64,000 bases of DNA, from NCBI GenBank assembly GCA_963847445.1, contig CAWJZV010000017.1, positions 64,001-128,000 on the forward strand, written 5' to 3'. The DNA comes from an uncultured delta proteobacterium (lineage in GTDB: Bacteria > Desulfobacterota > Binatia > UBA9968). A model generated the notes under the pieces. It had not been told where the DNA came from. It did no database searches and saw nothing but the letters and a program-made list of their open reading frames with translations. This document shows positions 18,888 to 39,886 of the stretch, in pieces. A program made the translations under genes and the position numbers. Position 1 is the stretch's first letter. The number at the start of each line of letters is the position of its first letter.

Positions 18888-19391
18888 TTACCGACCAGTC
18901 ATCACCGACGCCTGCGTCACGCACCAGGAAAGCATTTCCATCTGCGGCATGGTTTCCACCATGGATCCCGCGCGGGAAACTAAGCTTTCCGCTTCGGTGA
19001 TCGGTTGGCCCATGGCGAGCAGCACGGAGACGGCGAGCATGGCGGTGCGGCCGACGCCGCCGGCGCAATGAACCAGCACCGCTTCGCCGGAGTGCAGGCG
19101 GTTGGCGACATCGTTGGCGAGCGCCCAGAAGGCGTCCTTGTTCTCCGGCACGCCGCCTTCGCGTATTTCAAAAGGCACGACGGAACAGGGAACCGTGCCG
19201 GCGTCCAGCGCTTCGGCGTATTTAACCGATTTTTGGCGAATCTCGAAATCTTCGTTCAAGCAGACGATGGCGCCGACCGCGTCGGTCTTCACTTGATGCC
19301 AAACTTTATCGAGTGCTTCAAAGCGGCCGGGCATGCTGTGGAGCAGCAATCTTCCAGGAATGGAGTCGGGGAGTTCGACGTTACGAAACAT
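18888..19391 (-). CDS. protein-tyrosine/dual-specificity phosphatase, copy 1
   Basis: HCAGGVGRT (CX5R) P-loop. Confidence 0.9.
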   Translation of the reverse strand: MFRNVELPDSIPGRLLLHSMPGRFEALDKVWHQVKTDAVGAIVCLNEDFEIRQKSVKYAEALDAGTVPCSVVPFEIREGGVPENKDAFWALANDVANRLHSGEAVLVHCAGGVGRTAMLAVSVLLAMGQPITEAESLVSRAGSMVETMPQMEMLSWCVTQASVMTGR

Positions 19392-19790: not shown

Positions 19791-20180
19791 ACGTATCCGA
19801 AAGTTTGTGTGTGAAGCAAGTTGGTTATTTTAATTGCGGCTCGAATCGATCGGCGAAAAGGATCGCAAATTGAATCATGGCTGACTTCCATTCCCGTGCG
19901 CTCATCTTCCAATCCTTGGTAATATTTCTCAACGCTAAATAGAGCAGCTTCACCGCGGCCTCGTCATTGGGGAAATGGTACCGGTTCTTGATAATTTTTC
20001 TGAGCTGCATGTGCAGACTCTCGATAGCGTTGGTCGTGTAGATAATCTTTCTCACCTCGGCGGGATACGCAAAAAAGGGAATGACCTGCTCCCACTGCCG
20101 TTTCCAGATCAGCGCGATGGGCGGATATTTCTTGCCCCAGGGACCCTGCGAGAATTCTTCCAATGCCGCAAGGCCGTACC
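19788..20180 (-). mobile_element. IS256-family transposase 3' fragment with right end
   Basis: WGKKYP.I...W...W..VIPFFAYP.EVRKIIYTTNAIES..FPNDEAA.KLLYLAL; N-terminal part missing. Confidence 0.88.
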
Positions 20181-20426
20181 ACTTCGGAATTGGCAATCTG
20201 TCGGCCGTCGCAATCAGCTCTACAGGTGGAAGGAACGGTTAACTTTGATTCTCCGTAAAATCCAGGCTAGCTGAACCTAATCCCATGCTTGACGCGAGAC
20301 GCTAGTCATGACATCTGACAAATACCTTGCGGTTTTGACTGTGATGGGATGATGGGCATAAAAATTGGGGGGGGGCGGGTCCGGTTGCGTGCATGTCATG
20401 GACAAAGGAGGAATGCCTGGAGCTGT

Positions 20427-22299
<1,873 letters not shown>

Positions 22300-22399
22300 T
22301 TAGATTCATCCCGGAATCCGTAGTAAAGAAATCAAATAGGAGTGGTTGATCTCGCTCCATGTTGTCGTTTTTTTGATCTCATTCAAAGACAGGGGCGGG

Positions 22400-23590
22400 T
22401 TATACATAGCCGAATCGTTTTCGGAATCTCCGCACGGACTCTTCAGGCAGTGTATAGCCGCGGCACTGCAGACCAGCCGCCTGATAACCTAATCCCTGGA
22501 GCACTTGGTAATGCGACTTGGAGGAATCGTCATCGACGACGCCGAGGGTCGGCTTCAAACTTTCATAACGCGCCGTCAGCAGTCCCGATAGCACGCAACC
22601 GCCGATGTTAAGCGGGTTATATTTGGATATGGCTTCGAGAACAGCCGGCGGCGTCTGGTCCTGCACCCTTTGAGGTAAATACAGAGTTCGCTGGAAAGGT
22701 TCCGGGAGCCGAAGGACGCCGCCCGCAGTAAAAAGAATATCCTCGTGGGCTTCAAAACGCTGCATAGCCTCATCGGATTGAAGCAATGCGGAGCCGAGTC
22801 GTCGACGATCACGGTTCCTGGTCTGAGCTGTTCGATATCCAGTACATCGGGCACATTGGTGGCTCCAACAATCAGGCCGGCGTCGTAAACTTCGTGCGGC
22901 ACTTTCCCATCGACTCGACGATCTGAATAGAGTCCTGCGAATTTCAATTCACGAATGAGGTCATCGCGAACTTTTTTTAGGTGATCGAGCTTGCTGTAAA
23001 TATCACAAAGCGTAATGGACTTTGGATGGGGCAGGCTGTGAAGCATGAGGCGAAGCGTGGTGTAACCGATGGATCCCAGCCCGAGGAATGCGACATTTTC
23101 TTCGGCCAGGCTTTTGCCCGCTTCGCGCAAAATCCTTTCGATCGTCATTACGACGGTAGACACGGTCGTCGCATGACCGGTGGTGACGAGAGGATAGCGA
23201 TCGTTTGCGGAAATGACGTCCGCGATGGCCTGCCCGTAGTTGGTTGCCGAGGGGAGCAAGCCGGTCAAGGAAACAACGCGTGCTCCGATGCGATGGGATA
23301 TTTCCAAGGCTTCGAGAATCAAGGTGACGAGATCCGATTGATCGTCGTATAGACGGGAGCGCAACCGAGGCAACCCGATATTCGCGATCCGGCCAAGGTG
23401 GGTTTCATTGATGCCGAACACGCAGGGTAGTTCGTCGAACCAGTCATAAAGAGCGGCATCGCGCGACAACCCCATGTGCTGGAGAAGGTCCTCCGACAAA
23501 TAACTCAACGCGGCGGCATCGACGGGAGGGATCTTTCCCGCTGCCAGAAGAGAAAGCAGCGATCGTCGTTCGATCGATAGCGGTCTCGCG
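22400..23590 (-). other. terminal NAD(P)-binding domain, acyl-ACP reductase/COG5322-like
   Basis: [49 protein letters not shown] in the same order as the AAR motifs. Confidence 0.7.
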
Positions 23591-26500
23591 CTGCCATCGA
23601 CCGGGTGAGAATGCATGGGCCTCGTTCCGGACACGCTTAGTAATCAATTCCGCGTCGGCTTTCGGGCCGCTCGGGCTTGGCTCAGGGTTGTTCTCATCAG
23701 CGAGTGTCTCGATCAGCCGAGCGAGCCCGGCGATCGTCGGCGCCTCAAAAATATGCCGCAGGGGCAGCTTTTTACGCAGCTTGGTGCGCACGCGGGATAC
23801 TAGCTGTGTGGCGGACAAGGAGTGTAGGCCCAGGTCGAACAAGTTGTCCTGAATGCCGACCTTATCGATTTTCAAGATCTCAGCGGCGAGTTCTACGAGT
23901 TTTCTTTCAAAGACGCTACGCGGCGCCGCAAAGGTTTCATTGATCTCGCGGCGTTTAAAGTCGGGGGCAGGAAGTGTCTTACGCTCCACCTTGCCATTAG
24001 GGCTACGCGGTAGAGAAGGCAGGAATACGAAAAACGCGGGTACCATGTATTCGGGCAGCTGCTGTTTGAGAAAGTCGCGTAGACTCCAGGCGGCGGGAGC
24101 ATCTTCGTCTTCCGCTACAACGTAAGCGACCAGCTGCTTTTCTCCGGAGTTATTCTCTGGTGCCAGAATGACGGCTTCACGCACTTTCGGATGTCGGCCG
24201 AGCACTGACTCGATCTCTCCCAGTTCGATGCGGATGCTGCGGATTTTAACTTGCCCATCACGGCGACCGACGAAAGTGAAAGTGCCGTCGGACCGATACC
24301 GAACAACGTCTCCGGTTCTGTACAAGCGCTCCCCCGGCTTGTTGCTATAGGGATGGGGAATAAATTTTTCGGCGGTTAGATCAGAACGATTGAGGTAACC
24401 TACGGTTAATCCTTCGCCGCTTATATAAAGCTCGCCTTCGACTACCCACGGGCGTCGGGTTGAGATCGTCGTCCAAGACATAAAGCTGAGTATGCGGAAT
24501 CGGTCGACCGATCGGTGCGGTCGGGCACTGGTGGTCGGCCAACGAGATCGGATGATAGCTCGAGGTCATTGTGCATTCGGTTGGACCGTACTGATTAACC
24601 AGCAAAGTCTTCTCTCCGAAAGCTTCATGAACCTTGCGGCATAAAGACCCATGCAGAGGCTCGCCGCCTAACCAGGATGAGACGGAGGCTGTCGTGACTC
24701 GGTCGGTCCTCGGCTAGCATGGTTTCAGCCAGCTCGTTGAGCATCGGCGGCACCGTGCTCAGCAGACAGGTTATCCGATGTTGCTTGATCTTGGAGATCA
24801 GCACTGTCGGGTCTTTGGCTCCCTGTTGATCCACCAGTACGACCCGCGCACCGACCGTTAGCGGAGCGATCATGTCGCGGACCGAAGCGTCGAAAGAAAA
24901 GGACGCCAGCTGCAGCACGCTATCTGCACTATTGAGATTGTAAGTGTCGGCGAGAAAATTACAGTAGCGCGCGAGTCCCCAATGCGATGTGAGGACTCCT
25001 TTAGGCGTTCCCGTGGAGCCCGAAGTATAATACACATAGGAAAGATCGGCGGCACTCGTCGCCCAAGTAGGATTGTCCTCAATTTCACTGTCAAAGAGAT
25101 GCCGATCCCGATCGAAGCAAATGATCTCTCCCTTGTACTCGGGTAGTCGGTTGAGACACGGCGCGCTGGTTACCAGCAGAGTCGCCCGCGTGTCTCCCAG
25201 CATGTAGGCAAGGCGCATCCTGGGATAGTCAAAATCCAGCGGCACGTAGGCGGCGCCGGCTTTGAGAATCCCTAACACCGCGATCACCATATCGCAGCAG
25301 CGCTCCATGAAGATCGGGATCAAGTCTCCTGTTGCCACTCCGCGCGTTCTGAGGTGACGGGCAAACTGATTAGCCCGTCGATTGAGCTCACGGTAGGTCA
25401 AGCTCAGGTGCTCGTCGGTGAGCGCGATGGCATCTGGGGTTCGCTGAACCTGGGCTTCGAAGAGTTGGTGGATACAGCGATGTTCGGCCGGGTGTGTTTC
25501 CGAGCCGCTCCACTCTGCGAGCAATTGGCGCCTTTCGTCCTCGGCCAAAAGGGGCAGTTCTAACAACCTACGACCGCAGTCCGATGTGAGTGCCGCCAAT
25601 AAGTTGCAAAGGTGCCCGAGCATGCGGTTGATGGTTGTGTCGTCAAACAGATCGGAGTTGTAATTGATTGTCAGAGTCAGCCGTTGCGGCTTGGGTATGG
25701 CATAGAGCGTCAAGTCGAATTTGGAGGGTATGGCAATGTGCTCCGAACGGCGATGCATCTAACCTGGGAAGCGACAGCTGGTCGTCTTGTGTTTCAAGGA
25801 GATTGAACAGCACCTGAACCAGCGGCGAGTGGCTGAGGCTGCGTTGGGGGTGAAGTTCTTCGACCAGCTTTTCGAAGGGCAGGTCCTGATGCGTGTAGGC
25901 GCCGAGAGCCGTCTCGCGAACTCGGGTTAACAACTCGTTGAATGTCGGATTGCCGCTCAGGTCGGTGCGCAGAACCAGGGTGTTGACAAAAAACCCGATC
26001 AGCCCCTCGATCTCAGCGCCGGTTTCGGTTGGCGATCGGCGAGCCGACAACGATATCGTTTTGTCCGGTGTAGCGGTAAAGCAGGGTTTGGAAGGCCGCT
26101 AACAGGGTCATGAACAAGGTGACCCCTTGTCGAGCGCTGAGCGCTTGGAGTCCCTGGGTCAGCTCTTGGGACAGCTCTATCGATTGTTTCGCGCCGCGAT
26201 AGCTCTGCACTGCCGGGCGGGGCCGATCGGTGGGAAGATGGAGCATAGCCGGCGCCCCGGCAAGTTGTTTTTTCCAGTAGGACAGCTGGTTCTCTAACAC
26301 CTCTCCTTGCAGCCACTGGCGCTGCCAGACGGCAAAATCGGCGTATTGAATCGGCAGCTCGGAAAGCGGCGAGGGGTTGCCCTGGGTGTAGGCTTGGTAG
26401 AGCAAGGACAGCTCGCGGTAAAACACCCCCCTCGACCAGCCGTCCGATACAATATGATGCATCGATAAAACCAAAATGTGATCGTCTTGGCCGAGACGAA

Positions 26501-29500
26501 GCAGCAGGACTCTGAACAGGGGGCCTTGGGATAGATCGAACGGCTCGCGGGCCAGCTCGGTTGCTAGTCTTTGCGCTTCGTTCTCACGGTCGCTTGCGGG
26601 ATGATGCGTCAGATCCGTTATCGGCACCGACATCCTCAGGGCCGGCGCGATCAGCTGAACCGGTTCGCCGTCAACCGCCGCGAAGGTCGTCCGCAGCGAC
26701 TCATGGCGCCGCACGATCTCGTTAAGACTTTGCTCCAGGGCCGGCGATGTCTAGTGATCCTTTGAGACGCAGTGCGCTGGGGATGTTGTAAACGGAACTG
26801 TTCGGCTCGTACTGATCCAAAAACCACAACCGCTGCTGGGCAAAGGATAGCGGAATTCTCTCCTGCGGGTCGGTGGCAAACATTGGCCGGGCGTGTCGTC
26901 TCTCTCCTTGACCACGGACTTGATCGATTCGCTCGGCCAAGCCTGCGATGGTTGGGCTCTCGAACAGAAAGCGCAAGGGAATCTCGGCCTGGCAGGTTTC
27001 CCATATGCGGGATATAAGCTGGGTGGCGAGCAGGGAATGGCCGCCCAGGTCAAAAAAGTTATCGTGGATGCCGACCTGGTCTACTTTTAGAACCCCAGCC
27101 GCAATCCCGGCCAACAACTCCTCCGTAGCTGTGCGAGGGGCGACGTAGCGCTCCTTCTAGTTCTGGTCTACCCTGTTCCGGTGCCGGCAGGGCTTTTCTG
27201 TCTAGCTTGCCGTTGGGGGTGAGCGGTAGACGATTTCGAGCATTACGAACGCCGATGGCACCATGAATTCCGGCAACTTCCGTTTCAGAAAGCTTCGTAG
27301 CTCATTCGTTGAAGTGTCTGGCCGAGCAGACCACATACGCCACCAGCCGCTTGTCTGTTCCGGGCGAAACCGCACGATCTTCAGGACCATCTTCGCGTGC
27401 GAGCACAGCCGCCTGCTCGGATTGCCGGATGTTGTCCGAGCACCGCCTCGATCTCACCGAGTTCGATGCGATAACCGCGGATTTTCACCTGATGGTCCAT
27501 CCGTCCCAAAAATTCGATGTTACCGTCAGGCAAGTAGCGGGCTAGATCGCCGGTCTTATATACGCGGCTTGCAGGATTGGCATTGAATGGATCGGGTATA
27601 AATTTTTCTCTGGTCAGTTCAGGACGGTCTAAATAACCCCGGGCTAAGCCGTCGCCACCAATATGCATCTCTCCTGACACTCCAATGGGGACGGGATTTA
27701 GGAGTTTGTCTAACAGATAAATTTGCGTGTTGGCGATGGGCCGGCCCAAAGTAACTCTGCTGACATTCGCCGCCACTCTCTGGACGGCCGAATAGATGGT
27801 AGTTTCCGTCGGACCATACATATTCCAGAGCGAAGCACAGCGTTGCACGAGCTGCTTGGCCAAGTCGTCGGCAAGCGCTTCCCCGCCGCAGAGAATTTTC
27901 AATTCTCGGTTGCCTTGCCAGCCACCTGCCAAAAGCATGCGCCAAGTTGCGGGGGTCGCCTGCATTGCCGTTGCGCCACAGTCTGACAATAGCTGTGCCA
28001 GTCTCAAACCATCGGAGGCGACGTCTCGGCGTGCCAGCACTACGCGCGCGCCTACGGTTAGCGGCAAGTATATTTCCAGTCCGGCGATATCGAAGCAGAA
28101 CGTCGTGACCGCAAGAAGGATGTCCGTTTCGCTCAGGCCGGGTTGGCGCGCCATCGAAGCCAGGAAATTAACCACACTGCTATGTTGAATCATGACTCCC
28201 TTGGGCTTTCCGGTTGAGCCCGAGGTGTAGATCACATAGGCGAGGTTGTCGGGGTCTAGTTGTTGGCCGACATTGGTTATGCTCTCACGCGCGATCTCTT
28301 GCCAGTCCTGGTCATAGGAATCCGCACGCCAGCAAAGGTTGGCACGAGTTTACCGATCTGCGCTTGAGTCAACAAAGAAGCAGCACGGCTATCTTCAAGC
28401 ATGAAATCAATCCGTTCGGCGTGGAAAGTCGGGGTCGATTGGCAGGTAGGCGCCGCCGGCTTTGAGAATCCCTAGCAGCCCGACGATCATTTCTATGGAC
28501 CGTTCAACGCAGATGCCGACGAGCACATCGGGTCCGACGCCGAGCTTTTGTAAGTAATGAGCGAGTTGGTTGGAGCGGTTATTGAGCTCGCGGTAGGTGA
28601 TCTGTTGGTCCTCGAAGACCACGGCGATGGCGTCCGGAGTTTTCTCGACCTGCGCTTCGAACAACTCGTGGATGCACTGTCGTTGGGGTAGTCGGTTTTG
28701 GTGTCATTCCATTCGACTAAGAGTTGATGCTTCTCCGCCTCGGTGAGCAACGGTATCTCGCTAATCGGTTGGTCTGGGTTAGCGACGATGCCTTCGAGCA
28801 AGACTTGAAAATGACCGAGCATGCGCTCGATGGTGGCGGCATCGAACAGATCGGTATTGTAGTTGAGCGAGGCGCGAGCGAGCCCTGTCTATCGGATATG
28901 GTGAGCGAGAGGTCAAACTTAGCAATGTTGCTAGAGGATACGAATCGGAACGGCGCTAAGTCCTTCAAGCTCCAAGGAAGGATCGCCGGCGTTTTGGAGT
29001 GCAAACATCACCTGGAACAGAGGCGAGATGCTGGGGTTGCGCTCGGGATGTAGTTCCTCGACAAGTTTCTCGAAGGGCAGGTCTTGATGAGTATAGGCTT
29101 CTAGAGTGGTTTCGCGGACTTGGGCCAGCAGTTCTTTGAAGGTCGGGTTGTTGGAAAGATCGGTGCGCAAGACCAGCGTGTTGACGAATAAACCGATCAG
29201 CCCCTCGGTCTCCTGGCGGGTCCGACCGGCGACGGGAGTGCCCACGGCGATGTCTTGCTGGCCGCAGTAGCGGCAGAGCAGGGTCTGGAAAGCCGCCAGC
29301 AAGGTTATGAAAAGGGTAACGCCTTCGCGCTGGACTTAAACCCTCAATTGCTTCGGAAAGTTGCGTCGAAAGCTCTACGGATTGGCTCGCATCCCCGGTA
29401 AGTTTGCAGCGCTGGGCGGGGATGATCGGTAGGGAGCTGGAGCGTCGAAAGACCGTCGAGTTGCTTTCTCCAGTAGGAAAGTTGCTTGTCGAGGTTTTCG

Positions 29501-32500
29501 CTTTGGAGCGAATCGCGCTGCCAGAGGGCATAATCGGCGTATTGGATCGGGAGCTCACTCAGGGGACTGGGCTTCCCGGAGCCGTAGGCTTGATAAAGTG
29601 TCGAGAGCTCGCGGAAGAGCACGCCCATGGACCAACCGTCGGAAACGATATGGTGCAGGTTCAAGGCGAGCACGTGGTCGTGCGGGGCGAGACGCCAAAG
29701 CCGAGACCGTATCAGCGGCCCACGGCTAAGATCGAAGGGCTGTAGAGCTTCTTCTTCGAGCAGGGATTGTAGAGCCGGTTCGCGTTCGTGTGCTGGAAGC
29801 TCGCTCAGGTCGATAGGAGTCAGCGAAAAAACCAACGACCGCAAGATCTTTTGCACTGGATTGCCATTGACGGTGGCAAAGACCGTGCGCAGAGCTTCGT
29901 GACGGCGCACGACTTCATTGAGGCTTTGTTCCAGAGCGTTGAGGTTGAGATCGCCGGCCAAGCGGAACGCTGCCGGTATGTTATAGGTTGCGTTACCGGG
30001 ATCGAGACACTCCAAGAACCATAAGCGTTCCTGAGCGAAAGAGAGCGGGGTGGCGTTGCTCCTTGGGACCGGAAGGTTGGGTTGAAAGCTCCGTGAGTCA
30101 TTCTTGATTCCCATGCTGGCCTGGACCGAATCGGCGAGGCTGGCAATGGTTGGCGACTCGAACAATCTGCGCAAAGGGAAATCGATCTGGAACGCTTTAT
30201 TTATACGCGAGACGACCTGAGTGGCTATGAGGGAATGGCCACCCAGGTGAAAGAAGTTGTCATGGATGCCGACCTTGTCGAGCTTGAGGATCTCGGCCCA
30301 GATGTTAGCGAGGAATCTCCTCCACCGGAGTTCTTGGGGCGGCAAAGGCATCGTCGAGCTCGGGTCTGCTGTGATCGGGAGCCGGCAGAGCCTTTCGGTC
30401 GAGCTTGCCATTGGGCGTGAGCGGCAGCGAATCGAGGAACATAAAGGCCGACGGCACCATGTAGTCGGGCAGCTTGTGCTGGAGATAGCTGCGCAGGTCG
30501 TGAGCCGAAGGGGCTGGAGCCCGCAACAGCAACGGTGTAGGCCACCAGGCGACGGTCTCCCGGAGTGTCTTCTCGCACGAGCACCACCGCCTGTTGGATG
30601 GCGGGATGTTGAGCGAGCACGGATTCGATTTCGCCGAGTTCGATGCGATAGCCGCGAATCTTGACTTGATCGTCAATTCGTCCGAGAAACTCGATGTTGC
30701 CGTCAGGCAGGTAACGCGCCAGGTCGCCGGTTTTATACAACCGCGCCTGCAGATCGTTACTGAATGGATGCTCAATGAATTTCTCGGTTGTTAGTTCCGG
30801 ACGGTTGAGATAACCGCGCGCTAAGCCTGGTCCGCCGATGTAAAGCTCTCCACAGACGCCAATCGGTACCGGGCTTAGGTGGTTATCGAGAATGTATGTT
30901 TCCGTGTTCGCAATCGGCCGACCAATGGGAACCGTTGCGGCGTTCGCTGCAACGGATTTTACCCGGTACCACGTTGCAAACGTCGTCGTTTCTGTAGGAC
31001 CGTAGACGTGGAGCAATCGACTTGGCGGGCTGCTGCGTAACAGCTCTCTCACTCTCTCGGGATCGACGGCTTCCCCGCCAAAGAGCAGGTTCCGCAACTT
31101 GCCGAGGGCGGCGGGTATTTGTGTCCACCATCTGATTGAACAAGGCAGTGGTCAAAAAGAGCGTGGAGATCCCATGCCGTTCGATTGCCTTCGACAAAGA
31201 CTGCGGCGATAGCAACGTATCTTTGGCGATCAACACCAGCCGTGCGCCGTTTAACAACGCTCCCCAGATCTCGAAAGTCGCGGCATCGAATGAAACATTG
31301 GACGCCTGGGCGATCACTTCCGATGGCGTAACCTGCACGTAGTCTGTATTCATCACCAAGCGATTGACCGCCCGGTGTGACACGGCAACCCCTTTAGGCC
31401 GCCCCGTCGATCCCGAAGTGTAGACCACATAGGCGAGACTGTCTGATGAAGTTTTCGCCGCTAAGTTGCGCTCGCTCCCTTGACCGATCTTTTCCCAGTC
31501 TGTGTCCAGAGAGATAATTGTGGCTGTGTGATCGAATACATCGACAAACGCATGCTGGGCGATTAAAACCCGCGCTCCGCTGTCCTGGAGCATAAACCTC
31601 AGTCGTTCATTGGGATAGGTAGGGTCTAAGGGAACATAGGCGCCGCCCGCTTTGAGGATGCCGAGTAACCCGACAATCATGTCTATGGAGCGGTCAACGC
31701 AAATACCGACGAGTTCGTCGGGACCGACACCATGTGTATGCAAGTAATGAGCGAGCTGGTTGGCGCGGCTGATTCAGTTCGCGATAGGTCAACTGCTGGT
31801 CTTCGCAAACCAGGGCTATGGCGTCCGGGGTCTTCTCGACCTGTGTCTCAAACAGTTCATGGATGCACTGATCTTTCGGATAGTCGGTCTTGGTCTCGTT
31901 CCACTCGTATAACAGCTGATGTCTCTCGGTCGGACTTAACAGCGGTATGTCCAGGAGCTGGCGGTTCGGATCGCGTATCATTTCTACAAGCAGTGTCCGC
32001 AGGTGATTCAGCATCCGCGTGATGGTGTCGTCATCAAAACGCTGCCGATCGTAGGTGATTTCCAGCGATAAATCCGGCCCCAGATAGCCCGCGACCGTCA
32101 GCGGATAATGGGTCATCCCGCGCAGGTGAAATTCGCGGTTTTTCCACCGATCGCCTTGCTCGTGCATCAAGGCATTGAGTTGGTAATTTTCAAAAACGAG
32201 CAGGCTGTCGAATAATGGTTTGCCCGAGGGAACGGGGCTCCATTCGTGGATTTTGACCAGTGGAGTATGCTCGAAATCCCGCATGGCAATCCATTGGGAA
32301 CGCAGTGTCTGCAAAAATGGAAGCAGCCTGCTGTTCGGAGACACACGAACCGGCACCGGAACCGTGTTGATCAGAAGTCCAACGACGGAATCGGCCCCTT
32401 CGAACGCCGCGTGACGGCCGGCCCGGGTTGCGCCGAAGACGACGTCGTTCTCCCCGCTGTAGCGGCTTAGGAGCAATGCCCAGGCTCCTTGCAGCAAGGT

Positions 32501-33254
32501 GTTGGGCGTCAACTGGTACCGTTCGACCAAGGAGCGAAGGGCACGAGTATCGGTTTTGGAAAGCCGGGCGGTCTTCTCGCCATAACTCTGCACCTGCTGC
32601 GGGATTGGTTGGCGATGATTTCCGGCCAGACTTTGTTCGGCGTTGAGATCTTTCAGTCTCGCGCGCCAGAAATTCTCCGCTTCGCAAATGTTTTGTTTCT
32701 GAAGCCAGTCGATGTACGACCGATAGGGCGAAGGATTGCTTAAACTTAAGTTGTCGCCACGACAAATGGCTTCATAGAACGCGAAGACTTCGTTGAGGAG
32801 CAAGACGCGCGAGCGGCCGTCAAATAGAGCGTGATGAGAAGTCCAAATTAATCGGTATTCAGCTTGAGCGCAGCGAAGCAGCGTCAATCGCATCAGCGGG
32901 GCTTGATCCAGGTGAAACCCAAGCTGCCGGTCGGTTTGCAGAAAGCTTTCGAGTTGTTTTTCCTGTTCATCAAGAGTTCGATCGCTCCAATCCAAATGTT
33001 TCAAGGGAAGTTGGACATCTCGATGCACTTGTTGGACGGGCGGCTCCGTCCCTTCCCAGAAAAAGCTTGTCCGCAGCGCGGCATGGCGGCGCAAGACTTG
33101 ATCCCAGGCTCGCTGAAAAGCGCTGACATTCGAGCTCTTCGCGGAGCACGGCAACGAGCTGCTGAATATAGACACCCGATTGCGGCGCCGACAAGCTATG
33201 GACGAGCATGCCATGTTGTAATGGCGACAGGGGGTATGAGTCTTCAATCTGCAT
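22400..33254 (-). CDS. trimodular NRPS C-A-PCP-C-A-PCP-C-A-PCP + acyl-ACP-reductase-like terminal domain (many indels)
   Basis: Consecutive overlapping ORF fragments: C1 HHALFDG; A1 [10 protein letters not shown]; PCP1 LGGHSL; C2 HHIVSDGWS; A2 [10 protein letters not shown]; PCP2 LGGHSL; C3 HHIVSDGWS; A3 [10 protein letters not shown]; PCP3 LGLHSL; terminal Rossmann domain. A single-gene reading is inferred. Confidence 0.85.
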
Positions 33255-33550: not shown

Positions 33551-34059
33551 TGCAATTCCCTACCTTTCCTAGAGCTTCAATTGGAGCGGTCGGCATCGAC
33601 AGCTACGATCCTAGCTTGTTGCAATCTCGATCTAAAAATCAAGAAGCTAATTTAACGGTTTACCACTCGTGAGACATTTGGTGCCATTCAGGGACAACGC
33701 GCGACACTTCTTTGCTTTCGACTGCGTGGTGTTGCATCCCCTGTCGGGTAAATCCTTGCAGGGCGTGAATGCAACTACCGAGTTCTGGCCTTGCTGCAAC
33801 TTGGTCGCGATTTCGCATCGTGTACGGGAGTTTGTCGATTTGAACGCAACGACAAAATGGCTGGCAGTTTTGTTATACCGTTGTGTGTAGGGGGGTGCAA
33901 TGGAGACAATGCAGCCTTAGAGGTCGCCGGTGACAACGAACTAGATTATCCGATTGACCGATTTCACGGAACGTACCCACCCAATATCAGGTGGTCCCCG
34001 GTGGTTTTCTGAGCGCAGCGGCGAACGATGGTAGCTTGGCCAGCTGGAGGATCCAGTTG

Positions 34060-34830
34060 ATGGCCAAAGAAAGGACCAGCGTTCGTATGCAAACTCAGAT
34101 CAAGGTTATGTCGGCGCAGGGGCACTCGCTGCGCAGTATCGCTCGGGTGCTTCGGCTTTCGCGCCGCACCGTACGGAAGTATTTAGAACCAGACCCCCAG
34201 CCGCCCAGTGAGAACGGTGGCTGGGAGGACAAGATAGACTGGGATTATGTGCGCCACGAAGTCTACGGCAAAGGGACCACGGTCAAACAGATTGGCCGGG
34301 AGGTTGCCTCAGAGATCGCGTATGTAAAGTTCTGGCGGGTGTTTCGTGAACAGGCCGGACACAAAGCCAGTCCACAACAAGTCACCATTCGACTTCATCA
34401 CAAGCCGGGGAAAAAACCCAGGTCGATTTCGGCGACGGTGTTTTTATCACTGAGCGAGAAAGCGGCAAGAAGACGCTCACGCAGTTTTTCTTGGGCGTGT
34501 TGCCGTTTAGTTCGTACACCTTCGGGGAGTTTGTTTTAGACCAGAAACTGCCGACCTTCATCGGCGTCCAACAACGCATGTTCGCTTACTTTGGCGGGGT
34601 CACCCCGTACCTGGTGGTGGACAATCTCAAGAGCGGGGTACATAAGGCCCATCTCTACGATCCCGACGTTAATCCGACCTATTGCGATTTTGCCAATCAC
34701 ATGGGCTTTGCCGTGCTGCCGGCCCGGCCCTACAAACCCAAAGACAAGGGCTCGGGGGAATGTCACATCGGAGTTCTGCAAAGAGGCTTCTTTCAGGAAG
34801 TGCGTAACCGGGTCTTCTATTCATCGGCGA
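34060..34830 (+). mobile_element. istA: IS21-family IstA transposase, frameshifted and 3'-truncated
   Basis: HTH SLRSIARVLRLSRRTVRKY; FGGVTP.LV.DNLKSGV, PARPYKPKDKG..E; no istB. Confidence 0.85.
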
Positions 34831-35049
34831 GCCCACTATCGCAGACGCCATCTGCGATCGCTTGCTGCACCACAGTTACAAAATTGAACTGAAAGGAGAC
34901 TCGATTAGAAAGAACAAGAAATGAGAAAACCGACTTGCAACTTAATGAAGCCTTAGGCTATGAAAAAAACTCCAGCGTCGCTTCGCTCCGACCCCCGGCC
35001 GCAGTCAGCGAAATAGGGGGCCGAAATGCAGCGAAGTCACCGGCCGAGT

Positions 35050-35486
35050 TGTGCGAAATATCCATCCGGCGATGCCCAGACACTGAAGTACCCATGTGAA
35101 CACCGTCCGATGGGTTTCCAAATCGATCAATCGCCGCGTCCGCGATATCGTCGAATGATCCGGCGCACACTCTGTCAGCCCCAGCTCAAGGAACGATCGC
35201 ACTCCCGAGGAGTCCGCCGCGCGCCACGCCATGGCGCGTTCAGAGTCCAGGCATTCGAAGTAGCCAAGTAATAGAAAACGGAAATATCGTCCAGGCGCCA
35301 GACTGGGCCGCCCCATCTTCTCGGCATAGAACGACCGGCACTGCGCTTCGACAAACTCGTCGAACCCATGCTTGGCCAATAACCCGTTGAGCTTCTCGTA
35401 GAACGGGTGGCTCACAGACTTCGGCAGCTCGCTCACTGCCACCCATATCGCCGACTGCTCTTCGCGCTTCTTTGTCCCATCGCCAT
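35050..35486 (-). mobile_element. IS1182/IS5-like transposase 5' fragment (DUF772)
   Basis: HPFYEKLN..L....FD.FVE..C..FY...GRPSL.PG.YFR, PDHSTISRTRR; truncated. Confidence 0.85.
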
Positions 35487-35569
35487 GTAAAAAACTTTAA
35501 ACCCTATCAACCTTCGTGTCGATCACTTACGGTTTTCTACCGTCACTCTGTGCGCGACTTTCACCACGG

Positions 35570-36364: not shown

Positions 36365-37363
36365 ATGGCCAGTGCTGACCAATTAAAGGCGCTCATCAAG
36401 AGTCACGCTGAAGGTGACGATGAGAGGTTTTACACGATTGCAATACAGGTCGCAGCGCAAGCTGCGCGTCAAGGACATACCAGATTTGCGACCGAACTTC
36501 GGGACTTAGTTATGCGAGCAAAGGCTCGTGGAAACGTCGTTCTGTTGGGTCAGCAGACAAGGCCAGTGCCGCTAGTTCAACCTCGCGGCGAGCTTGCAGG
36601 GCTTTTGACGGCGGCGTATCCCAAACTTCGCCTCGCAGATATGGCGCTGGAGGAGAAAGTAAGATCCCGAGTAGAACGTGTACTTCTAGAACAACGGCAA
36701 CGAGAGCGAATTCGGCAGCATGGTTTTACGGCTCTCCGTAAACTGCTCTTTATAGGTCCGCCCGGCACCGGAAAAACGATGACCGCAGGGGTCTTGGCCG
36801 GTGAGCTTGGGTTACCGCTCTTTACGATTCAACTCGACGGGCTAATTACAAAGTACCTTGGGGAAACAGCGGCAAAGCTTCGTCTTATCTTCGATGCAAT
36901 CCAGCAGACCCGTGCCATTTACTTGTTCGACGAGTTCGATGCCCTTGGGAGCGAACGAACGGCGCGAAATGAAGTTGGAGAAATCCGTCGGGTTCTAAAT
37001 TCTTTTCTCTTGTTTCTTGAAGAAACTCAGTCGGAAAGCATTATTGTCGCTGCAACGAATCATCCGAAGCTGTTAGACCGTGCACTCTTCAGAAGGTTCG
37101 AGGCCGTGATAGAATTTAGTCCGCCTTCTAAAGTCGTGGCAGAAAAGGTGCTTCGGTCTAGACTTGCGCTATTGGAGACGACCGGGCTGGAATGGCCGAA
37201 GGTTGTTCACGCGGCAACTGGGCTCAGTCACGCAGATATCGCTCGTGCCTGTGAGGACGCCGCTAAAGATGCAATTCTCGCTCACCGCGCTCGCATTGAG
37301 ACCAGGGAACTCGTTCGGGCTCTCACCGAACGACGAGCTGCGCACAAACCAGCTCGTAGTTAG
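36365..37363 (+). CDS. AAA+ ATPase, IetA-like
   Basis: MASADQLKALIKSH..GD..RF; Walker A GPPGTGKT, Walker B YLFDEFD, AATNH..LLDRALFRRF. Confidence 0.9.
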   Translation: MASADQLKALIKSHAEGDDERFYTIAIQVAAQAARQGHTRFATELRDLVMRAKARGNVVLLGQQTRPVPLVQPRGELAGLLTAAYPKLRLADMALEEKVRSRVERVLLEQRQRERIRQHGFTALRKLLFIGPPGTGKTMTAGVLAGELGLPLFTIQLDGLITKYLGETAAKLRLIFDAIQQTRAIYLFDEFDALGSERTARNEVGEIRRVLNSFLLFLEETQSESIIVAATNHPKLLDRALFRRFEAVIEFSPPSKVVAEKVLRSRLALLETTGLEWPKVVHAATGLSHADIARACEDAAKDAILAHRARIETRELVRALTERRAAHKPARS

Positions 37364-37369
37364 TAAGAA

Positions 37370-39886
37370 ATGGCGGCTCCACGCAACCGAAAGCACCTCG
37401 TCGTAGTTACACCTCCATCGACGGAAGCATACAGAAGCCATGCTCGTATAATAACGGCACCCACCTTGCCAGTGCCGCCTGACAGAGGAAGGCATGCTAG
37501 GGAACTGCGTTCAGCGTTAGTAAACGCTGAACGCGAATCATTAGAGAGCCGGCAAGCTGTTGGCATTCGAGTGCACGGGGCAACGCCCGGTCTGTATGTA
37601 CAGTTTGAGAGCCCTCCTGGAATCGACCTAAGACTTGAGTCCCTTGAAGACAAGCGCAAAGGTATTGAGGTCGTTGCGGTGAGACATCTAGGGGATCCAC
37701 CGGTCCAGCTCGCGACGGTTTTTGTGCCTGACGGAGAGATCAAGCACTTTATTAGGCGATTTGAGAAATACGAATTCGAGAAAACAAAAAAAGATGAGCC
37801 CCGGCACAAAGATATGGTTGACCGAATCGCTGCATTGCAACGGGCGACCCTCCGTGCGCTTTGGACTGACGAGGCGAACGAATACCCTTCCGAGAATCAA
37901 CCAATCTGGTGGGAAGTGTGGTTGCGCCGCCATGACGGTGGAGAATTGGAACGTTTAAGTGCGTTCTCACGCGTGATTGGCCTCGTCCTTGGTGAGCAAT
38001 CGCTAGCCTTTGATGAACGAATCGTTGTCCTTGTGAGGGGAACAGCCAGACAGCTAGCCGGATCTCTCGATGTACTCAATGATGTTGCCGAGGTACGCAA
38101 AGCGAAGGAGAGCGCGGCATTCTTTGTAGATGCCTCGCCGACAGAACAGGCGAACTGGTCGGACGACCTGAGGGCGCGAACAACACCGCCCGGAGCAGAC
38201 GCTCCTGCTGTTTGCGTACTGGATACTGGCGTGACCCGCAATCATCCATTGATTCAGGATCTCTTATCACCAGGGGATTTGATGACGGTGAATCCTAATT
38301 GGGGGCCGCAAGATGATGGTGGCGGACCTGGCCAAATGGGGCACGGGACCGAAATGGCGGGGCTTGCTGCTTATGGAGATCTCACGGGCGTTCTCATGTC
38401 GGTGGCGCCGGTAAACATGCGGCATCGATTGGAATCTGTTAAAATTCTTCCACCGAGGGGAAGCAATCCCCAACAACTTTATGGCGCGATCACGGCGCAG
38501 AGTGTTGCGTTACCGGAGATTAACACACCCAATCGCCTACGAGTTTTTTCGCTTTCGGTTACAGCAATTGACCAACGGGACCGTGGCCAACCGACTTCGT
38601 GGTCTGCTGCTGTTGATGCACTTGCAGCCGGTCGAAGTTTTGATCCCGGAACTCAAGGTCTCATATACATAGATAGTGCTGAGGCCGAAGCGCATCGTCT
38701 TTTCGTAGTTAGCGCTGGGAATGTCCAACCTGAAATGTTTGAACCAGCTCACCTCAATCAGAGCGATGTTCAGCCGGTTCACGACCCTGCGCAGGCGTGG
38801 AACGCGCTGACTGTCGGGGCCTTTACGGAGAAAAGCGTGATTACACATCGTGATTGGGATGGATGGAGTGCACTCTCACCACCAGGTGAATTATCTCCCC
38901 ATAGTACAACTTCGGTCATGTTCCAGGATATCTGGCCTACTAAACCGGACGTTGTGTTTGAAGGTGGCAACGTGGCTTACAATGGAACGGACTTTGATCC
39001 AGGCGTTCCAGATCTTTGTCTACTTTCGACTCACTACCAACCAAATGAGAAACTATTCGTACTGTCGCGTGCAACGAGTGCTGCTACAGCGCAGGTCGCG
39101 CGCATCGCGGCCATTATTCTGGCAGATTATCCAACCTTCTGGCCTGAAACTGTTCGAGCGCTCATTGTTCATTCAGCCAAATGGACACAACCGATGGAAA
39201 ACCAGCTAATTGGTGTGTCGGGAAAGCGGGCAAGAGCAATACTCGTACATCGTTACGGCTTCGGTGTACCGCAATTGGAGAGAGCTCTACGGAGTGCGAA
39301 TGACTCGCTCACGCTCGTTGCCCAAGGTATCTTGCGTCCATTCACAGTCGGGAAGATGCGTGAAATGCATTTTTATCGATTGCCATGGCCAAAGGAGGCT
39401 TTGGAGGAGTTGGGTGGTGCGGTGGTGCGTTTGCGCATTACTCTTTCATACTTTGTAGAACCAAACCCTAGCCGACGAGGCTGGAAACGTAGGTACAGAT
39501 ACGCATCTCATGGCCTTCGATTCGACGTAAAACTTCCGACCGAGGATATTGATACTTTTCGTAAGCGCCTGAACAAGCGCGCGTTGGAAGGGGATGAAGA
39601 TAAACCGCAAAGCAGTAGCGATTCTGCAGATTGGTTTTTGGGTGAACAGGCACGGAACAAAGGATCAATTCACTCCGACATCTGGAAAGGTACCGCAGCC
39701 GACTTGGCCGAGCGCGGCGTAATTGGTGTCTGTCCCGTTTCCGGGTGGTGGAAAGATCAGCCAAAACGAGATCGAAGTGATTTTGGTGCTCGCTATGCAC
39801 TTGTAGTCAGCATTGAGACCGATGCGGAAGATGTGGATATCTGGACGCCTGTCGCTCAACAAATCGGGGTGTTGATTGAGGTGTAA
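37370..39886 (+). CDS. S8 subtilisin-like protease, IetS/y4bN-like
   Basis: Triad VLDTG, HGTEMAG, ATSAA; oxyanion SAGN; KPDVV.EGGN; YFVEPNP; no signal peptide. Confidence 0.9.
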   Translation: MAAPRNRKHLVVVTPPSTEAYRSHARIITAPTLPVPPDRGRHARELRSALVNAERESLESRQAVGIRVHGATPGLYVQFESPPGIDLRLESLEDKRKGIEVVAVRHLGDPPVQLATVFVPDGEIKHFIRRFEKYEFEKTKKDEPRHKDMVDRIAALQRATLRALWTDEANEYPSENQPIWWEVWLRRHDGGELERLSAFSRVIGLVLGEQSLAFDERIVVLVRGTARQLAGSLDVLNDVAEVRKAKESAAFFVDASPTEQANWSDDLRARTTPPGADAPAVCVLDTGVTRNHPLIQDLLSPGDLMTVNPNWGPQDDGGGPGQMGHGTEMAGLAAYGDLTGVLMSVAPVNMRHRLESVKILPPRGSNPQQLYGAITAQSVALPEINTPNRLRVFSLSVTAIDQRDRGQPTSWSAAVDALAAGRSFDPGTQGLIYIDSAEAEAHRLFVVSAGNVQPEMFEPAHLNQSDVQPVHDPAQAWNALTVGAFTEKSVITHRDWDGWSALSPPGELSPHSTTSVMFQDIWPTKPDVVFEGGNVAYNGTDFDPGVPDLCLLSTHYQPNEKLFVLSRATSAATAQVARIAAIILADYPTFWPETVRALIVHSAKWTQPMENQLIGVSGKRARAILVHRYGFGVPQLERALRSANDSLTLVAQGILRPFTVGKMREMHFYRLPWPKEALEELGGAVVRLRITLSYFVEPNPSRRGWKRRYRYASHGLRFDVKLPTEDIDTFRKRLNKRALEGDEDKPQSSSDSADWFLGEQARNKGSIHSDIWKGTAADLAERGVIGVCPVSGWWKDQPKRDRSDFGARYALVVSIETDAEDVDIWTPVAQQIGVLIEV

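Follow-up and report, generated by a model that had tools for sequence, protein, structure and literature searches.

The C-terminal domain of a three-module NRPS from a soil-type bacterium is assigned to the terminal amidation domain (TAD) family

The closest described relatives of the domain studied here are the terminal amidation domains (TADs) of CarI, VatR and HcaD. The TAD family was described by Rankin et al. [quoted passage not shown] In particular, the products of the carmabin, vatiamide E/F and hectoramide B pathways are C-terminal primary amides, not aldehydes. In the CarI TAD, the phosphopantetheine arm of the PCP reaches Cys2238, as seen from a BMOE crosslink and from a crystal with a dPCoA-Cys2238 disulfide, and this residue lies 4 Å from C4 of the nicotinamide. 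NAD(H) is bound with Kd values of 11.6 and 3.5 μM and NADP(H) is not bound; NADH (Kd 3.5 μM) is bound by the CarI TAD slightly better than NAD+, with Asp2102 as the residue that favors NAD(H) over both NADP(H) and CoA. [quoted passage not shown] It should be mentioned that the three amide-linked TADs are 85–95% identical to each other, so that the link to amides is effectively a single observation. Our literature search found no journal version, follow-up or later mechanistic paper beyond this preprint.

The window analyzed here is a stretch of DNA of 64,000 nucleotides. It contains an NRPS gene that, according to the preliminary description of the window, is terminated by an AAR-like domain off-loading the peptide reductively through a Cys thioester. 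We compared the sequence of this domain with that of the TADs and found it practically certain that it belongs to the TAD family of the CarI type. The features of the locus are as follows (positions in the window).

19828..20238, minus strand: what remains, at the C-terminal end, of a transposase of the Mutator family that flanks the cluster (PF00872, profile positions 290-378 of 379)
20427..22299, minus strand: next gene after that of the TAD, encoding a stand-alone A-PCP (Pfam matches to AMP-binding, AMP-binding_C and PP-binding)
22400..33254, minus strand: NRPS, (C-A-PCP)x3-TAD, in about 20 frame pieces (stop-to-stop ORFs, collinear in tblastn with the homologs P0121 and P0125)
33252-33254, minus strand: start ATG of the NRPS, matching the start of the ortholog in the congener G014; the stop codon is at 22400-22402
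22403..23586, minus strand: TAD, about 395 aa with AAR-like fold, from RPLSIERR to FRKRFGYV (match to 9e4x_A and fold match)
23711..23905, minus strand: PCP3, PP-binding (PF00550, E=1.9e-15, residues 221-285 of ORF 23447-24565), directly upstream of the TAD
23819-23821, minus strand: phosphopantetheinyl Ser of PCP3 in DLGLHS (motif look-up)
30926..31581, minus strand: junction at which the window is without two modules (about 6.4 kb) present in G014
33958-34892, plus strand: transposase with HTH and rve (integrase-core) parts in two frames, upstream of the NRPS (Pfam)
35008-35496, minus strand: DUF772 transposase fragment, upstream of the NRPS (Pfam)

In the CarI TAD chain 9e4x_A, the first piece of the domain matched positions 4-274 (E=1.4e-80) and the second positions 275-396 (E=2.8e-30), and the two matches were contiguous across the frameshift in the window. 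Crystal structures of the CarI TAD are available as PDB 9E4S, 9E4U, 9E4X, 9E50 and 9E56. A profile built from 48 homologs matched 9e4s in a profile search of the PDB (E=2e-182); the only other solved protein that it reached was the PigE N-domain (4ppm, E=3.4e-8, chain residues 68-278), and AAR chains were absent from this search at E≤10. The fold was studied on a homolog, P0002 (76% identical to the window piece), rather than on the frameshifted copy of the window. Its AF2 model (pLDDT 91) matched the TAD crystals in Foldseek with target TM of 0.90–0.96, rmsd of 1.8–2.4 Å and 48–49% identity. The best non-TAD matches of P0002 were the AAR structures 6JZQ, 6JZU, 6JZY and 6JZZ (target TM 0.71–0.73, 15–17% identity, E about 1e-13), in agreement with the AAR-like fold proposed from the motifs. 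The N-lobe of the TAD resembles a macrodomain and its C-lobe is of the Rossmann type; the TAD shares common ancestry with the cyanobacterial acyl-ACP reductase.

No Pfam match to a thioesterase (including PF00975) or to SDR/NAD_binding_4 was found in the window domain pieces or in the G014 ortholog, which bears out the earlier statement that neither a TE nor an SDR-type R domain follows PCP3. The sole Pfam match of the domain pieces at E≤0.1 was a sub-threshold one to the Rossmann family THF_DHG_CYH_C. In NCBIfam, the first piece matched the PigE N-terminus (E=1.8e-6) and, more weakly, the SbnB family (E=0.01), both at sub-threshold level; the second piece gave no match, and AAR family models were not among the NCBIfam or Pfam matches of the domain. 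The domain has the following features of TADs: the sequence match, the two-lobed fold (on P0002), the Cys, the cofactor motifs and the C-terminal position after a carrier protein. With the AAR family it shares the fold (the equivalence of the Cys being taken from the preprint) and not a sequence-model match, and the features of SDR-type R domains (TGxxGxxG, YxxxK) and type I TEs are missing from it. The preliminary description had placed this release mode outside the standard domain lists. In fact, this kind of proposed release domain is real and was published in 2024 as the TAD, with structures released on 2025-02-26, and the window copy is not a new category. It should be noted, however, that it is only about 49% identical to the three amide-linked TADs.

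We next list the motifs of the domain, which were located by motif look-up in the stop-to-stop translations of the minus strand; all six motifs quoted in the preliminary description were found among them.

23260-23313, minus strand: 18-residue motif
23164-23187, minus strand: VTTGHATT
23176..23184, minus strand: Thr-Thr-Gly at the junction of the two lobes, equivalent to CarI 2042-2044; it positions the Cys (role according to the preprint)
23065-23094, minus strand: 10-residue dinucleotide-loop motif
23065..23082, minus strand: GLGSIG, the GxGxxG dinucleotide-binding loop (G in 276/277, 273/277 and 277/277 homologs)
23002..23004, minus strand: Asp of LCDIYS, equivalent to CarI Asp2102 (its offset from TTG fits the CarI numbering; D in 273/277)
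22789-22809, minus strand: IVDDSAP
22789..22803, minus strand: DDSAP loop, equivalent to CarI 2169-2173 (Asp-Asp-Ser-Gly-cisPro); the second Asp stacks on the nicotinamide
22712-22726, minus strand: AGGVL
22577-22606, minus strand: 10-residue Cys motif
22595..22597, minus strand: invariant Cys (TGC codon), equivalent to CarI Cys2238, which opens the helix following the lobe crossover, and to AAR Cys294

All catalytic and cofactor residues named in the preprint are present in the window and conserved among the 277 complete homologs. The Cys, which aligns with the Cys of NIMGCAFSALL in 9e4x, was found in every one of them, as the proposed catalytic role would demand. In the Thr-Thr-Gly motif the first position is T in 202 homologs and S in 74, while the second T and the G occur in 269 and 274, respectively. 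The DDSAP loop has D in 275, D in 270, S in 272 and P in 272 homologs, with A (153) or G (91) at the fourth position. Thus, the motif residues are each present in at least 269 of 277 homologs, except for the first Thr and the Gly/Ala position.

As a rule, the domain is located at the very end of the protein: for 267 of the 277 complete domains, no more than 30 residues remain between the domain and the C-terminus, and 205 are preceded by more than 200 residues. Most of the long homologs have the arrangement C-A-PCP-X by their Pfam lists and some PKS-ACP-X; a TE following the TAD was revealed in a few of them (P0226, P0235). The homologs are therefore not mainly internal. Nor is the domain a separate gene, since C-A-PCP-TAD is encoded without a break of the frame in the P0121 and G014 orthologs. 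The C-terminus of P0121 (87% identical, C-A-PCP-domain) is ...FRKRFGYV, as in the window copy, where the stop codon follows directly. In the representative library, 812 clusters, including both NRPS and PKS, matched the TAD at E≤1e-3, and the TAD is a widespread alternative to thioesterase release. Its distribution is patchy: it was found in two of the 25 genomes of the genus and in none of 400 other genomes drawn from the phylum, for which reason the neighborhoods were surveyed in metagenome contigs. A search of genome contigs with P0002 gave six matches, all to carrier proteins; the query patterns came partly from the PCP part.

In the congener G014, the cluster is encoded by open ORFs of 4309 aa, (C-A-PCP)x4, 1474 aa, C-A-PCP-TAD, and 623 aa, A-PCP. 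The window NRPS was collinear with this cluster in blastn at 87–88% identity, apart from the junction listed above (L015 55-1740 maps to window 33267-31581, and L015 8802-17339 to window 30926-22379). The A-PCP gene of the window contains a single +1 frameshift at about 22180; its nucleotide identity to the open G014 ortholog is 86.5%. The statement that the NRPS is terminated by the domain is thus right for the NRPS protein and needs a correction for the locus, where a stand-alone A-PCP gene still lies downstream. Since the NRPS begins directly with a C domain, this A-PCP is most simply read as the initiation module; a tail of about 45 residues following the PCP of the A-PCP protein was also counted toward this role.

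The NRPS of the window contains about 20 net frame breaks in 10.9 kb. The indel sites revealed between 22300 and 26000 are as follows.

23616: extra base in the PCP3-TAD linker that breaks the frame; absent from the X1 and X2 contigs and from G014
22776: missing base just after ...PHCFNP that breaks the TAD frame; X1, X6 and G014 have one more base (behind 22776 in X1 and X6; in the X2 contig it is behind 22774)
22904..22933: compensating +1/-1 pair (at about 22933/22904) as compared with contigs of other runs and G014, by which about 10 residues are garbled (window LYSDRRVDG, P0121 SIRIVESKG)
24444, 24667/24671 and 25739: the remaining frame-breaking indels

The frameshifts are probably artefacts, that is, consensus errors of the assembly in repeat-rich DNA. 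The five frame-breaking indels of this region (22776, 23616, 24444, 24667/24671 and 25739) are absent from contigs of four other runs wherever these cover the sites, runs X2, X6 and X8 leaving parts of it uncovered. Comparison of the NRPS coding part with G014 revealed 34 gaps of 1–2 nt and no gap of 3n; most of the gaps are non-templated insertions of one base outside homopolymers. Of the codons compared with G014, 3365 in the NRPS and 622 in the A-PCP gene, none was an in-frame stop, and dN/dS was 0.14–0.26. Full-length Pfam matches were obtained for the flanking genes, and rpoC lies in a 1390-aa open frame. A tally by codon position of 31 of the 127 substitutions relative to X1, with 15 in the third, five in the second and 11 in the first, did not decide between artefact and decay. 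Other NRPS clusters of the same genome are fragmented too, as are the IS copies in the window, which fits error-prone filling of repeats. Alternatively, the locus may be a decaying pseudogene cluster in which the frameshifts are real and the domain is inactive. Breaks occur only in the NRPS, the A-PCP gene and the IS remnants, while the neighboring genes are intact; together with the transposase remnants on both sides of the cluster and the two modules fewer than in G014, this may point to true decay of an accessory island, and the patchy distribution in the genus and phylum agrees with it. However, decay would hardly leave about 4000 corrected codons without a nonsense codon and with such low dN/dS, the 1–2 nt and mostly non-templated insertions are unlike natural slippage or deletion-biased decay, and near-identical contigs from other runs lack the indels. 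We therefore consider decay unlikely.

Elsewhere in the window, the ORF pairs 48664/49640 and 57259/58704 were considered as halves of frameshifted genes and rejected, since the members of each pair match different Pfam families and are separate genes. The overlapping ORF pair 15759/15991 had no Pfam match.

Taken together, we favor, with somewhat more than even confidence, a model in which the (C-A-PCP)x3 NRPS is initiated by the A-PCP and ends in a TAD, the chain is off-loaded through the Cys to an amide, and the frameshifts are artefactual. The peptidyl chain bound to PCP3 would enter the NAD tunnel on its phosphopantetheine arm and would then be moved by transthioesterification onto the invariant Cys (codon 22595-22597). 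A nitrogen nucleophile would resolve the acyl-enzyme with NAD(H) bound, giving a peptide with a C-terminal primary amide. The first two steps are based on homology to CarI, whose Cys was shown to be accessible to the arm, and off-loading via a Cys acyl-enzyme appears likely. The last step is suggested only by three cyanobacterial pathways, closely related to each other, that yield amides, and the chance that the product here is an amide is about even or slightly better. No gene for a nitrogen donor is evident in the window.

The earlier proposal of reductive off-loading through a Cys thioester thus holds in part. The fold and the Cys were read correctly, as the preprint reports an AAR-like fold and a PCP arm that reaches the Cys, while release as an aldehyde is unsupported, the known TAD products being amides; nothing found here favors reductive over other release. 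Use of NADPH, as in AAR, is not supported, since TADs bind NAD(H) and not NADP(H) by means of a conserved Asp, and the presence of this Asp in the window sequence would speak against NADPH here as well. Still, a TAD might act as AAR or PigE, with the chain transferred to the Cys and reduced by NAD(P)H to a peptide aldehyde that is either the final product or is later aminated and re-oxidized. AAR is the nearest non-TAD fold, and the PigE N-domain, reported as an AAR-like thioester reductase (PMC8341465), is the only other solved relative detectable by sequence (4ppm and the NCBIfam PigE matches). Both relatives found are thioester-to-aldehyde reductases, although for the PigE N-domain this comes from bioinformatics and work with lysates. 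Moreover, the CarI TAD binds NADH and has been crystallized with it, and the preprint itself names a reduce-aminate-oxidize route. On the other hand, NAD(H) with loaded PCPs gave no release in the experiments reported there, a conserved Asp beside N1 of the nicotinamide was argued to favor NAD+, and the window domain matched no AAR family model in NCBIfam or Pfam. Given these points and the amide products of the known pathways, we regard an aldehyde route as improbable.

Another reading concerns the gene that follows. In the TAD subclade of the window, the TAD might not be the end of the line, and the chain might be handed to, or the nitrogen be taken from, the aminoacyl-S-PCP of the next NRPS gene, which is A-PCP in the window and C-A-PCP or A-PCP-TE in related loci. 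We surveyed 59 metagenome loci in which a complete TAD is followed by 2 kb or more of sequence, and in 15 of them an NRPS ORF on the same strand starts between -51 and +100 nt from the TAD end. Four such ORFs were scanned; three were C-A-PCP or (C-fragment)-A-PCP-TE and the fourth A-PCP. The A-PCP is also kept beside the TAD in G014, and the only nitrogen donors tested in the preprint, free amino acids and ammonia, were without effect. However, the trait is missing in 44 of the 59 loci, and on a tree of 68 complete one-frame TADs its 13 rows require 4–5 changes: 11 fall in one branch of 15 rows and two form a separate pair, so that the trait was mostly inherited with one cluster family. In addition, the preprint reports no consistently co-occurring ORF, and a separate loading module is in any case required by an NRPS whose first domain is C. 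This reading has a very low probability. A specific form of it, highly speculative and restricted to the soil-bacterial TAD subclade, is that the co-transcribed A-PCP serves as the nitrogen donor: the chain would pass from the TAD Cys to the α-amine of the aminoacyl-S-PCP, and oxidation of the new Cα-N bond by the TAD with NAD+, in the manner of an amino-acid dehydrogenase, followed by hydrolysis of the imine would give the carboxamide and a 2-oxoacyl-S-PCP. If true, the failure of free amino acids and ammonia in vitro would be accounted for.

Short assembly lines terminated by a TAD occur in soil bacteria, with three modules here, five in the congener and a separate A-PCP in each. Their authentic substrates would be small peptides, far easier to synthesize than the lipopeptides of cyanobacteria that stood in the way of the published assays. 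Considering also its long open frames, the G014 version is a possible practical system for deciding between amide and aldehyde. It should also be mentioned that the TAD has neither a Pfam model nor a dedicated NCBIfam model, due to which annotations should be read with care, as the domain appears in them as an unannotated tail.

Comparison of the window domain with known systems revealed that it is closest to the TADs of CarI, VatR and HcaD. It shares with them the organization of a two-lobed domain of about 400 aa fused after the last PCP, as well as the TTG motif, the GxGxxG loop, the NAD-selecting Asp, the DDS(G/A)P loop and the invariant Cys. It differs in its origin, a soil-type bacterium (the runs with related sequences are soil and sediment metagenomes) versus a marine cyanobacterium, in having DDSAP versus DDSGP in CarI, Ala being the commoner form among the homologs, and in belonging to a short NRPS that lacks an N-methyltransferase and has a stand-alone A-PCP gene behind it. 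AAR has the same overall fold and, according to the preprint, a spatially equivalent catalytic Cys and a nicotinamide cofactor in the adjoining tunnel, while at 15–17% identity it is beyond detection by sequence profiles. Unlike the TAD, it is free-standing and NADPH-dependent, pairs with an aldehyde-deformylating oxygenase and releases a fatty aldehyde; the TAD, as the preprint describes it, is a dimer with an extra strand and helix in the N-lobe, binds no nicotinamide cofactor other than NAD(H) and has been connected with amide products. The PigE N-domain of the prodigiosin MAP pathway (4PPM) is likewise AAR-like, contains a conserved Cys and acts on a thioester (PMC8341465), and its proposed aldehyde would be transaminated to an amine. 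Its fusion partner is a class III aminotransferase and not an NRPS, and it does not serve chain release. Amidation of the myxothiazol MtaG type also yields C-terminal amides at the end of the assembly line, as stated in the Introduction of the preprint. This route depends on an additional Gly module in which a monooxygenase is embedded, and no such domain was found by Pfam in the NRPS, TAD or A-PCP pieces of the window. Finally, SDR-type R/TD domains resemble TADs in their C-terminal position after a carrier protein, their dependence on nicotinamide and their role as an alternative to the TE, whereas their fold and motifs are unrelated. R domains reduce the phosphopantetheine thioester directly, without a Cys acyl-enzyme.

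The tail studied here belongs to an NRPS that is directly followed by a second, smaller gene:

33252-33254 (ATG) to 22400-22402 (stop codon), minus strand: NRPS, in about 20 overlapping frame pieces
about 22299 to 20427, minus strand: stand-alone A-PCP gene, directly after the NRPS

The NRPS has the domain order (C-A-PCP)x3 and ends in the tail, some 395 unannotated residues directly downstream of PCP3. Neither a TE nor an SDR match was found in this tail with Pfam or NCBIfam; the sole Pfam match was a sub-threshold Rossmann one, and NCBIfam gave only sub-threshold matches to the PigE N-terminal part and the SbnB family. All six motifs quoted for the tail in the preliminary description were located at their positions by motif look-up. 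With these motifs in place, PCP3 upstream and no TE or SDR in the tail, its observation is thus correct, beyond chance.

This tail belongs to the terminal amidation domain (TAD) family. Its two frame pieces match positions 4-274 (E=1.4e-80) and 275-396 (E=2.8e-30) of the CarI TAD chain, contiguously across the internal frameshift, and P0002, a 76%-identical homolog, matches PDB chains 9e4x_A and 9e4s_A with E ~1e-115. The matched entries, released 2025-02-26, are titled "TAD from Carmabin Biosynthetic Pathway" and include apo, NAD, NADH and dephospho-CoA disulfide forms (Foldseek). The AlphaFold model of P0002 (pLDDT 91) fits the TAD crystals with a target TM of 0.90-0.96 at 48-49% identity.

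Two intact homologs, P0121 (1175 aa; 84-91% identity in each piece) and P0125 (1707 aa), align over their whole length with the NRPS frame pieces in collinear order, the frame changing at every junction. PCP and TAD form one polypeptide in P0121 and four other close homologs, three of which share the FRKRFGYV terminus of the window TAD, and the ortholog in the congeneric genome G014 is a 1474-aa open frame comprising C, A, PCP and the tail. Judged by these sequences, the tail is fused to the NRPS, and the separate unrelated gene considered in the preliminary description is ruled out.

Compared with G014, the coding part of the window NRPS contains 34 gaps of 1-2 nt, none a multiple of three; most are insertions of one non-templated base outside homopolymers. 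In the corrected frame, no stop codons were present in the 3365 NRPS and 622 A-PCP codons compared, with dN/dS values of 0.23-0.26 (NRPS) and 0.14 (A-PCP). Contigs of four sequencing runs from different studies (three labelled soil/sediment, the fourth unlabelled) were compared with the window over 22300-26000. Where they covered them, they differed by single-base indels exactly at five frame-breaking sites and at two compensating pairs; a 7768-nt contig from run X1 spans the whole interval with 87 substitutions and 9 gaps. The flanking genes gave full-length Pfam matches, and rpoC is open over 1390 aa. Fragmentation also affects the IS copies in the window and further NRPS clusters of this genome, an assembly of 48 contigs with 91.8% completeness and 6.9% contamination. 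This pattern probably reflects an error-prone consensus in repeat-rich stretches, which it fits better than natural decay. The NRPS clusters on contigs C46 (385999-398769) and C23 (147709-159382) of this genome are split into short frames like the window, with the condensation domains of C46 in 3-5 pieces. In G014, two NRPS ORFs of 4309 and 1474 aa overlap by 106 nt (L015 12892-12998, G014:C3), the second starts inside a C domain (Pfam profile position 14), and P0125 reads through the corresponding PCP-C junction without a break, which suggests that G014 may also be frameshifted there.

In total, 347 homologous proteins were collected, and the 277 with a whole domain were used for counts and MAFFT alignment. 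The Cys proposed as catalytic in the preliminary description is present in 277/277. The three glycines of GxGxxG are conserved in 276, 273 and 277, the NAD-selecting Asp in 273, the two loop Asp in 275 and 270, and the second Thr and Gly of TTG in 269 and 274. The window TAD carries all of these residues by motif look-up; its loop, DDSAP, is the commoner variant (Ala in 153 versus Gly in 91 of the 277). Of the 277, 267 end within 30 residues of the TAD and five more end after 31-100 residues; the other five extend by more than 100, and among these P0226 and P0235 list a thioesterase family and P0232 SDR/thioester-reductase families. More than 200 residues precede the TAD in 205/277. The representative library contains 812 clusters of TAD homologs at E<=1e-3. 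To judge from the Pfam lists, PKS-ACP-TAD architectures occur among the long homologs, and a TubC_N docking domain is present in some homologs. Within the genus, the TAD was found in two of 25 genomes, the window's own (once) and G014, and a draw of 400 further genomes of the phylum contained none. The distribution of the TAD cluster is patchy.

The position of the A-PCP gene is conserved in G014, where it encodes 623 aa, and in the closest of the metagenome loci. Since the window NRPS begins directly with a C domain, the simplest reading of A-PCP is a loading module; that it supplies nitrogen to the TAD is of low probability. Of 79 metagenome TAD loci, 59 include the intact end of the TAD followed by 2 kb or more of sequence. 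In 15 of these 59, a same-strand NRPS ORF starts -51 to +100 nt from the TAD end, encoding, where scanned, A-PCP, C-A-PCP or (C-fragment)-A-PCP-TE. Full C-A-PCP or (C-fragment)-A-PCP-TE directly follows the TAD-ending NRPS in L047 (1525-4830), L059 (2496-5726) and L038 (8495-11899), where the TAD is not last by gene order. An MFS transporter directly follows the TAD in about 4/59 loci and a PPTase in 2/59. In 12 other loci of the 59 (L041, L043, L049-L052, L054-L056, L058, L067, L068) the TAD is followed by a family-5 solute-binding protein (~630 aa) and a 4HB_MCP/HAMP/GAF sensor (~680 aa); ten of them share a branch in the TAD tree. This tree is restricted to 68 loci whose TAD is complete and in one frame, 13 of them with an NRPS ORF next. 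Of these 13, eleven sit in the window's subclade, a branch of 15 rows, and there is one separate pair; thus, this trait is largely inherited with one cluster family.

The G014 cluster comprises (C-A-PCP)x4 plus C-A-PCP-TAD, and the window has two modules (~6.4 kb) fewer. The junction lies within homologous A domains (window 30926-31581 versus L015, G014:C3, 1740-8802), and these congeneric species differ either by a natural deletion of modules or by their expansion. Transposase remnants flank the cluster on both sides. Just past the one bounding the cluster lies a 167-aa dual-specificity/tyrosine phosphatase-like ORF (18891-19391, minus strand; Pfam Tc-R-P, Y_phosphatase, DSPc). At 36365-39886 on the plus strand, adjacent open frames for an AAA ATPase (332 aa) and an S8 subtilase (838 aa) match PADLOC IetA (E=8.9e-75) and IetS (E=1.5e-35) and are therefore assigned to an Iet-type anti-phage defence pair.

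The TAD is a ~400-residue C-terminal domain of CarI, VatR and HcaD, whose pathway products (carmabins, vatiamides E-F and hectoramide B) end in a primary amide, according to Rankin et al. (bioRxiv 10.1101/2024.10.28.620694), on which the following account also draws. The active site is lined by a Thr-Thr-Gly motif, GxGxxG and an Asp-Asp-Ser-Gly-cisPro loop; the spacing in the crystal chain as aligned here (TTG to GxGxxG +34, TTG to Asp +60) agrees with the published CarI numbering. The invariant Cys2238, equivalent to AAR Cys294, lies 4 A from nicotinamide C4, and the PCP Ppant arm was crosslinked to it and forms a disulfide with it in the crystal. CarI TAD binds NAD+ (Kd 11.6 uM) and NADH (Kd 3.5 uM) but, because of Asp2102, not NADP(H) or CoA. 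For CarI, the carrier arm can thus deliver its load to Cys through the NAD tunnel. By homology, the PCP arm of the window NRPS would do the same, and everything after this delivery we infer. The most likely outcome, with about even confidence, would be Cys-mediated off-loading with amide formation. The amide is preferred as the one outcome for which a correlation with products is available; this correlation comes from three nearly identical TADs, to which the window TAD is only about half identical.

The preliminary description had instead proposed AAR-style reduction with release as an aldehyde. Both AAR and the PigE N-terminal domain, the relatives of the TAD found here, are reported to reduce to aldehydes, and NADH is bound by the TAD; PMC8341465 describes the PigE domain as a thioester reductase that resembles AAR and has a conserved Cys. 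However, this chemistry is improbable in view of the products known from TAD pathways, the Asp that favours NAD, the lack of NADPH binding and the assay of Rankin et al., in which no release of a model substrate was obtained when NAD(H), metals, ammonia or any one of the 20 amino acids was supplied. That study left open where the nitrogen comes from and what NAD does; no later TAD paper was found by PDB code, domain name or product names.

The claim of a release mode outside the known lists is not supported, as the literature already covers this family, its resemblance to AAR, the Cys and a wide distribution; the 757 homologs gathered by Rankin et al. span bacterial phyla, most of them with the domain at an NRPS C-terminus. 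The structural part of the preliminary description proved right and amounts to an independent rediscovery of this family, of which the window TAD is a further member of modest interest. The TAD fold has been described as similar to AAR (Rankin et al.), and for the P0002 model the best structures after the TAD crystals were indeed AAR entries 6JZQ, 6JZU, 6JZY and 6JZZ (target TM 0.71-0.73, but only 15-17% identity), followed at far lower TM by amino-acid dehydrogenases (Foldseek).
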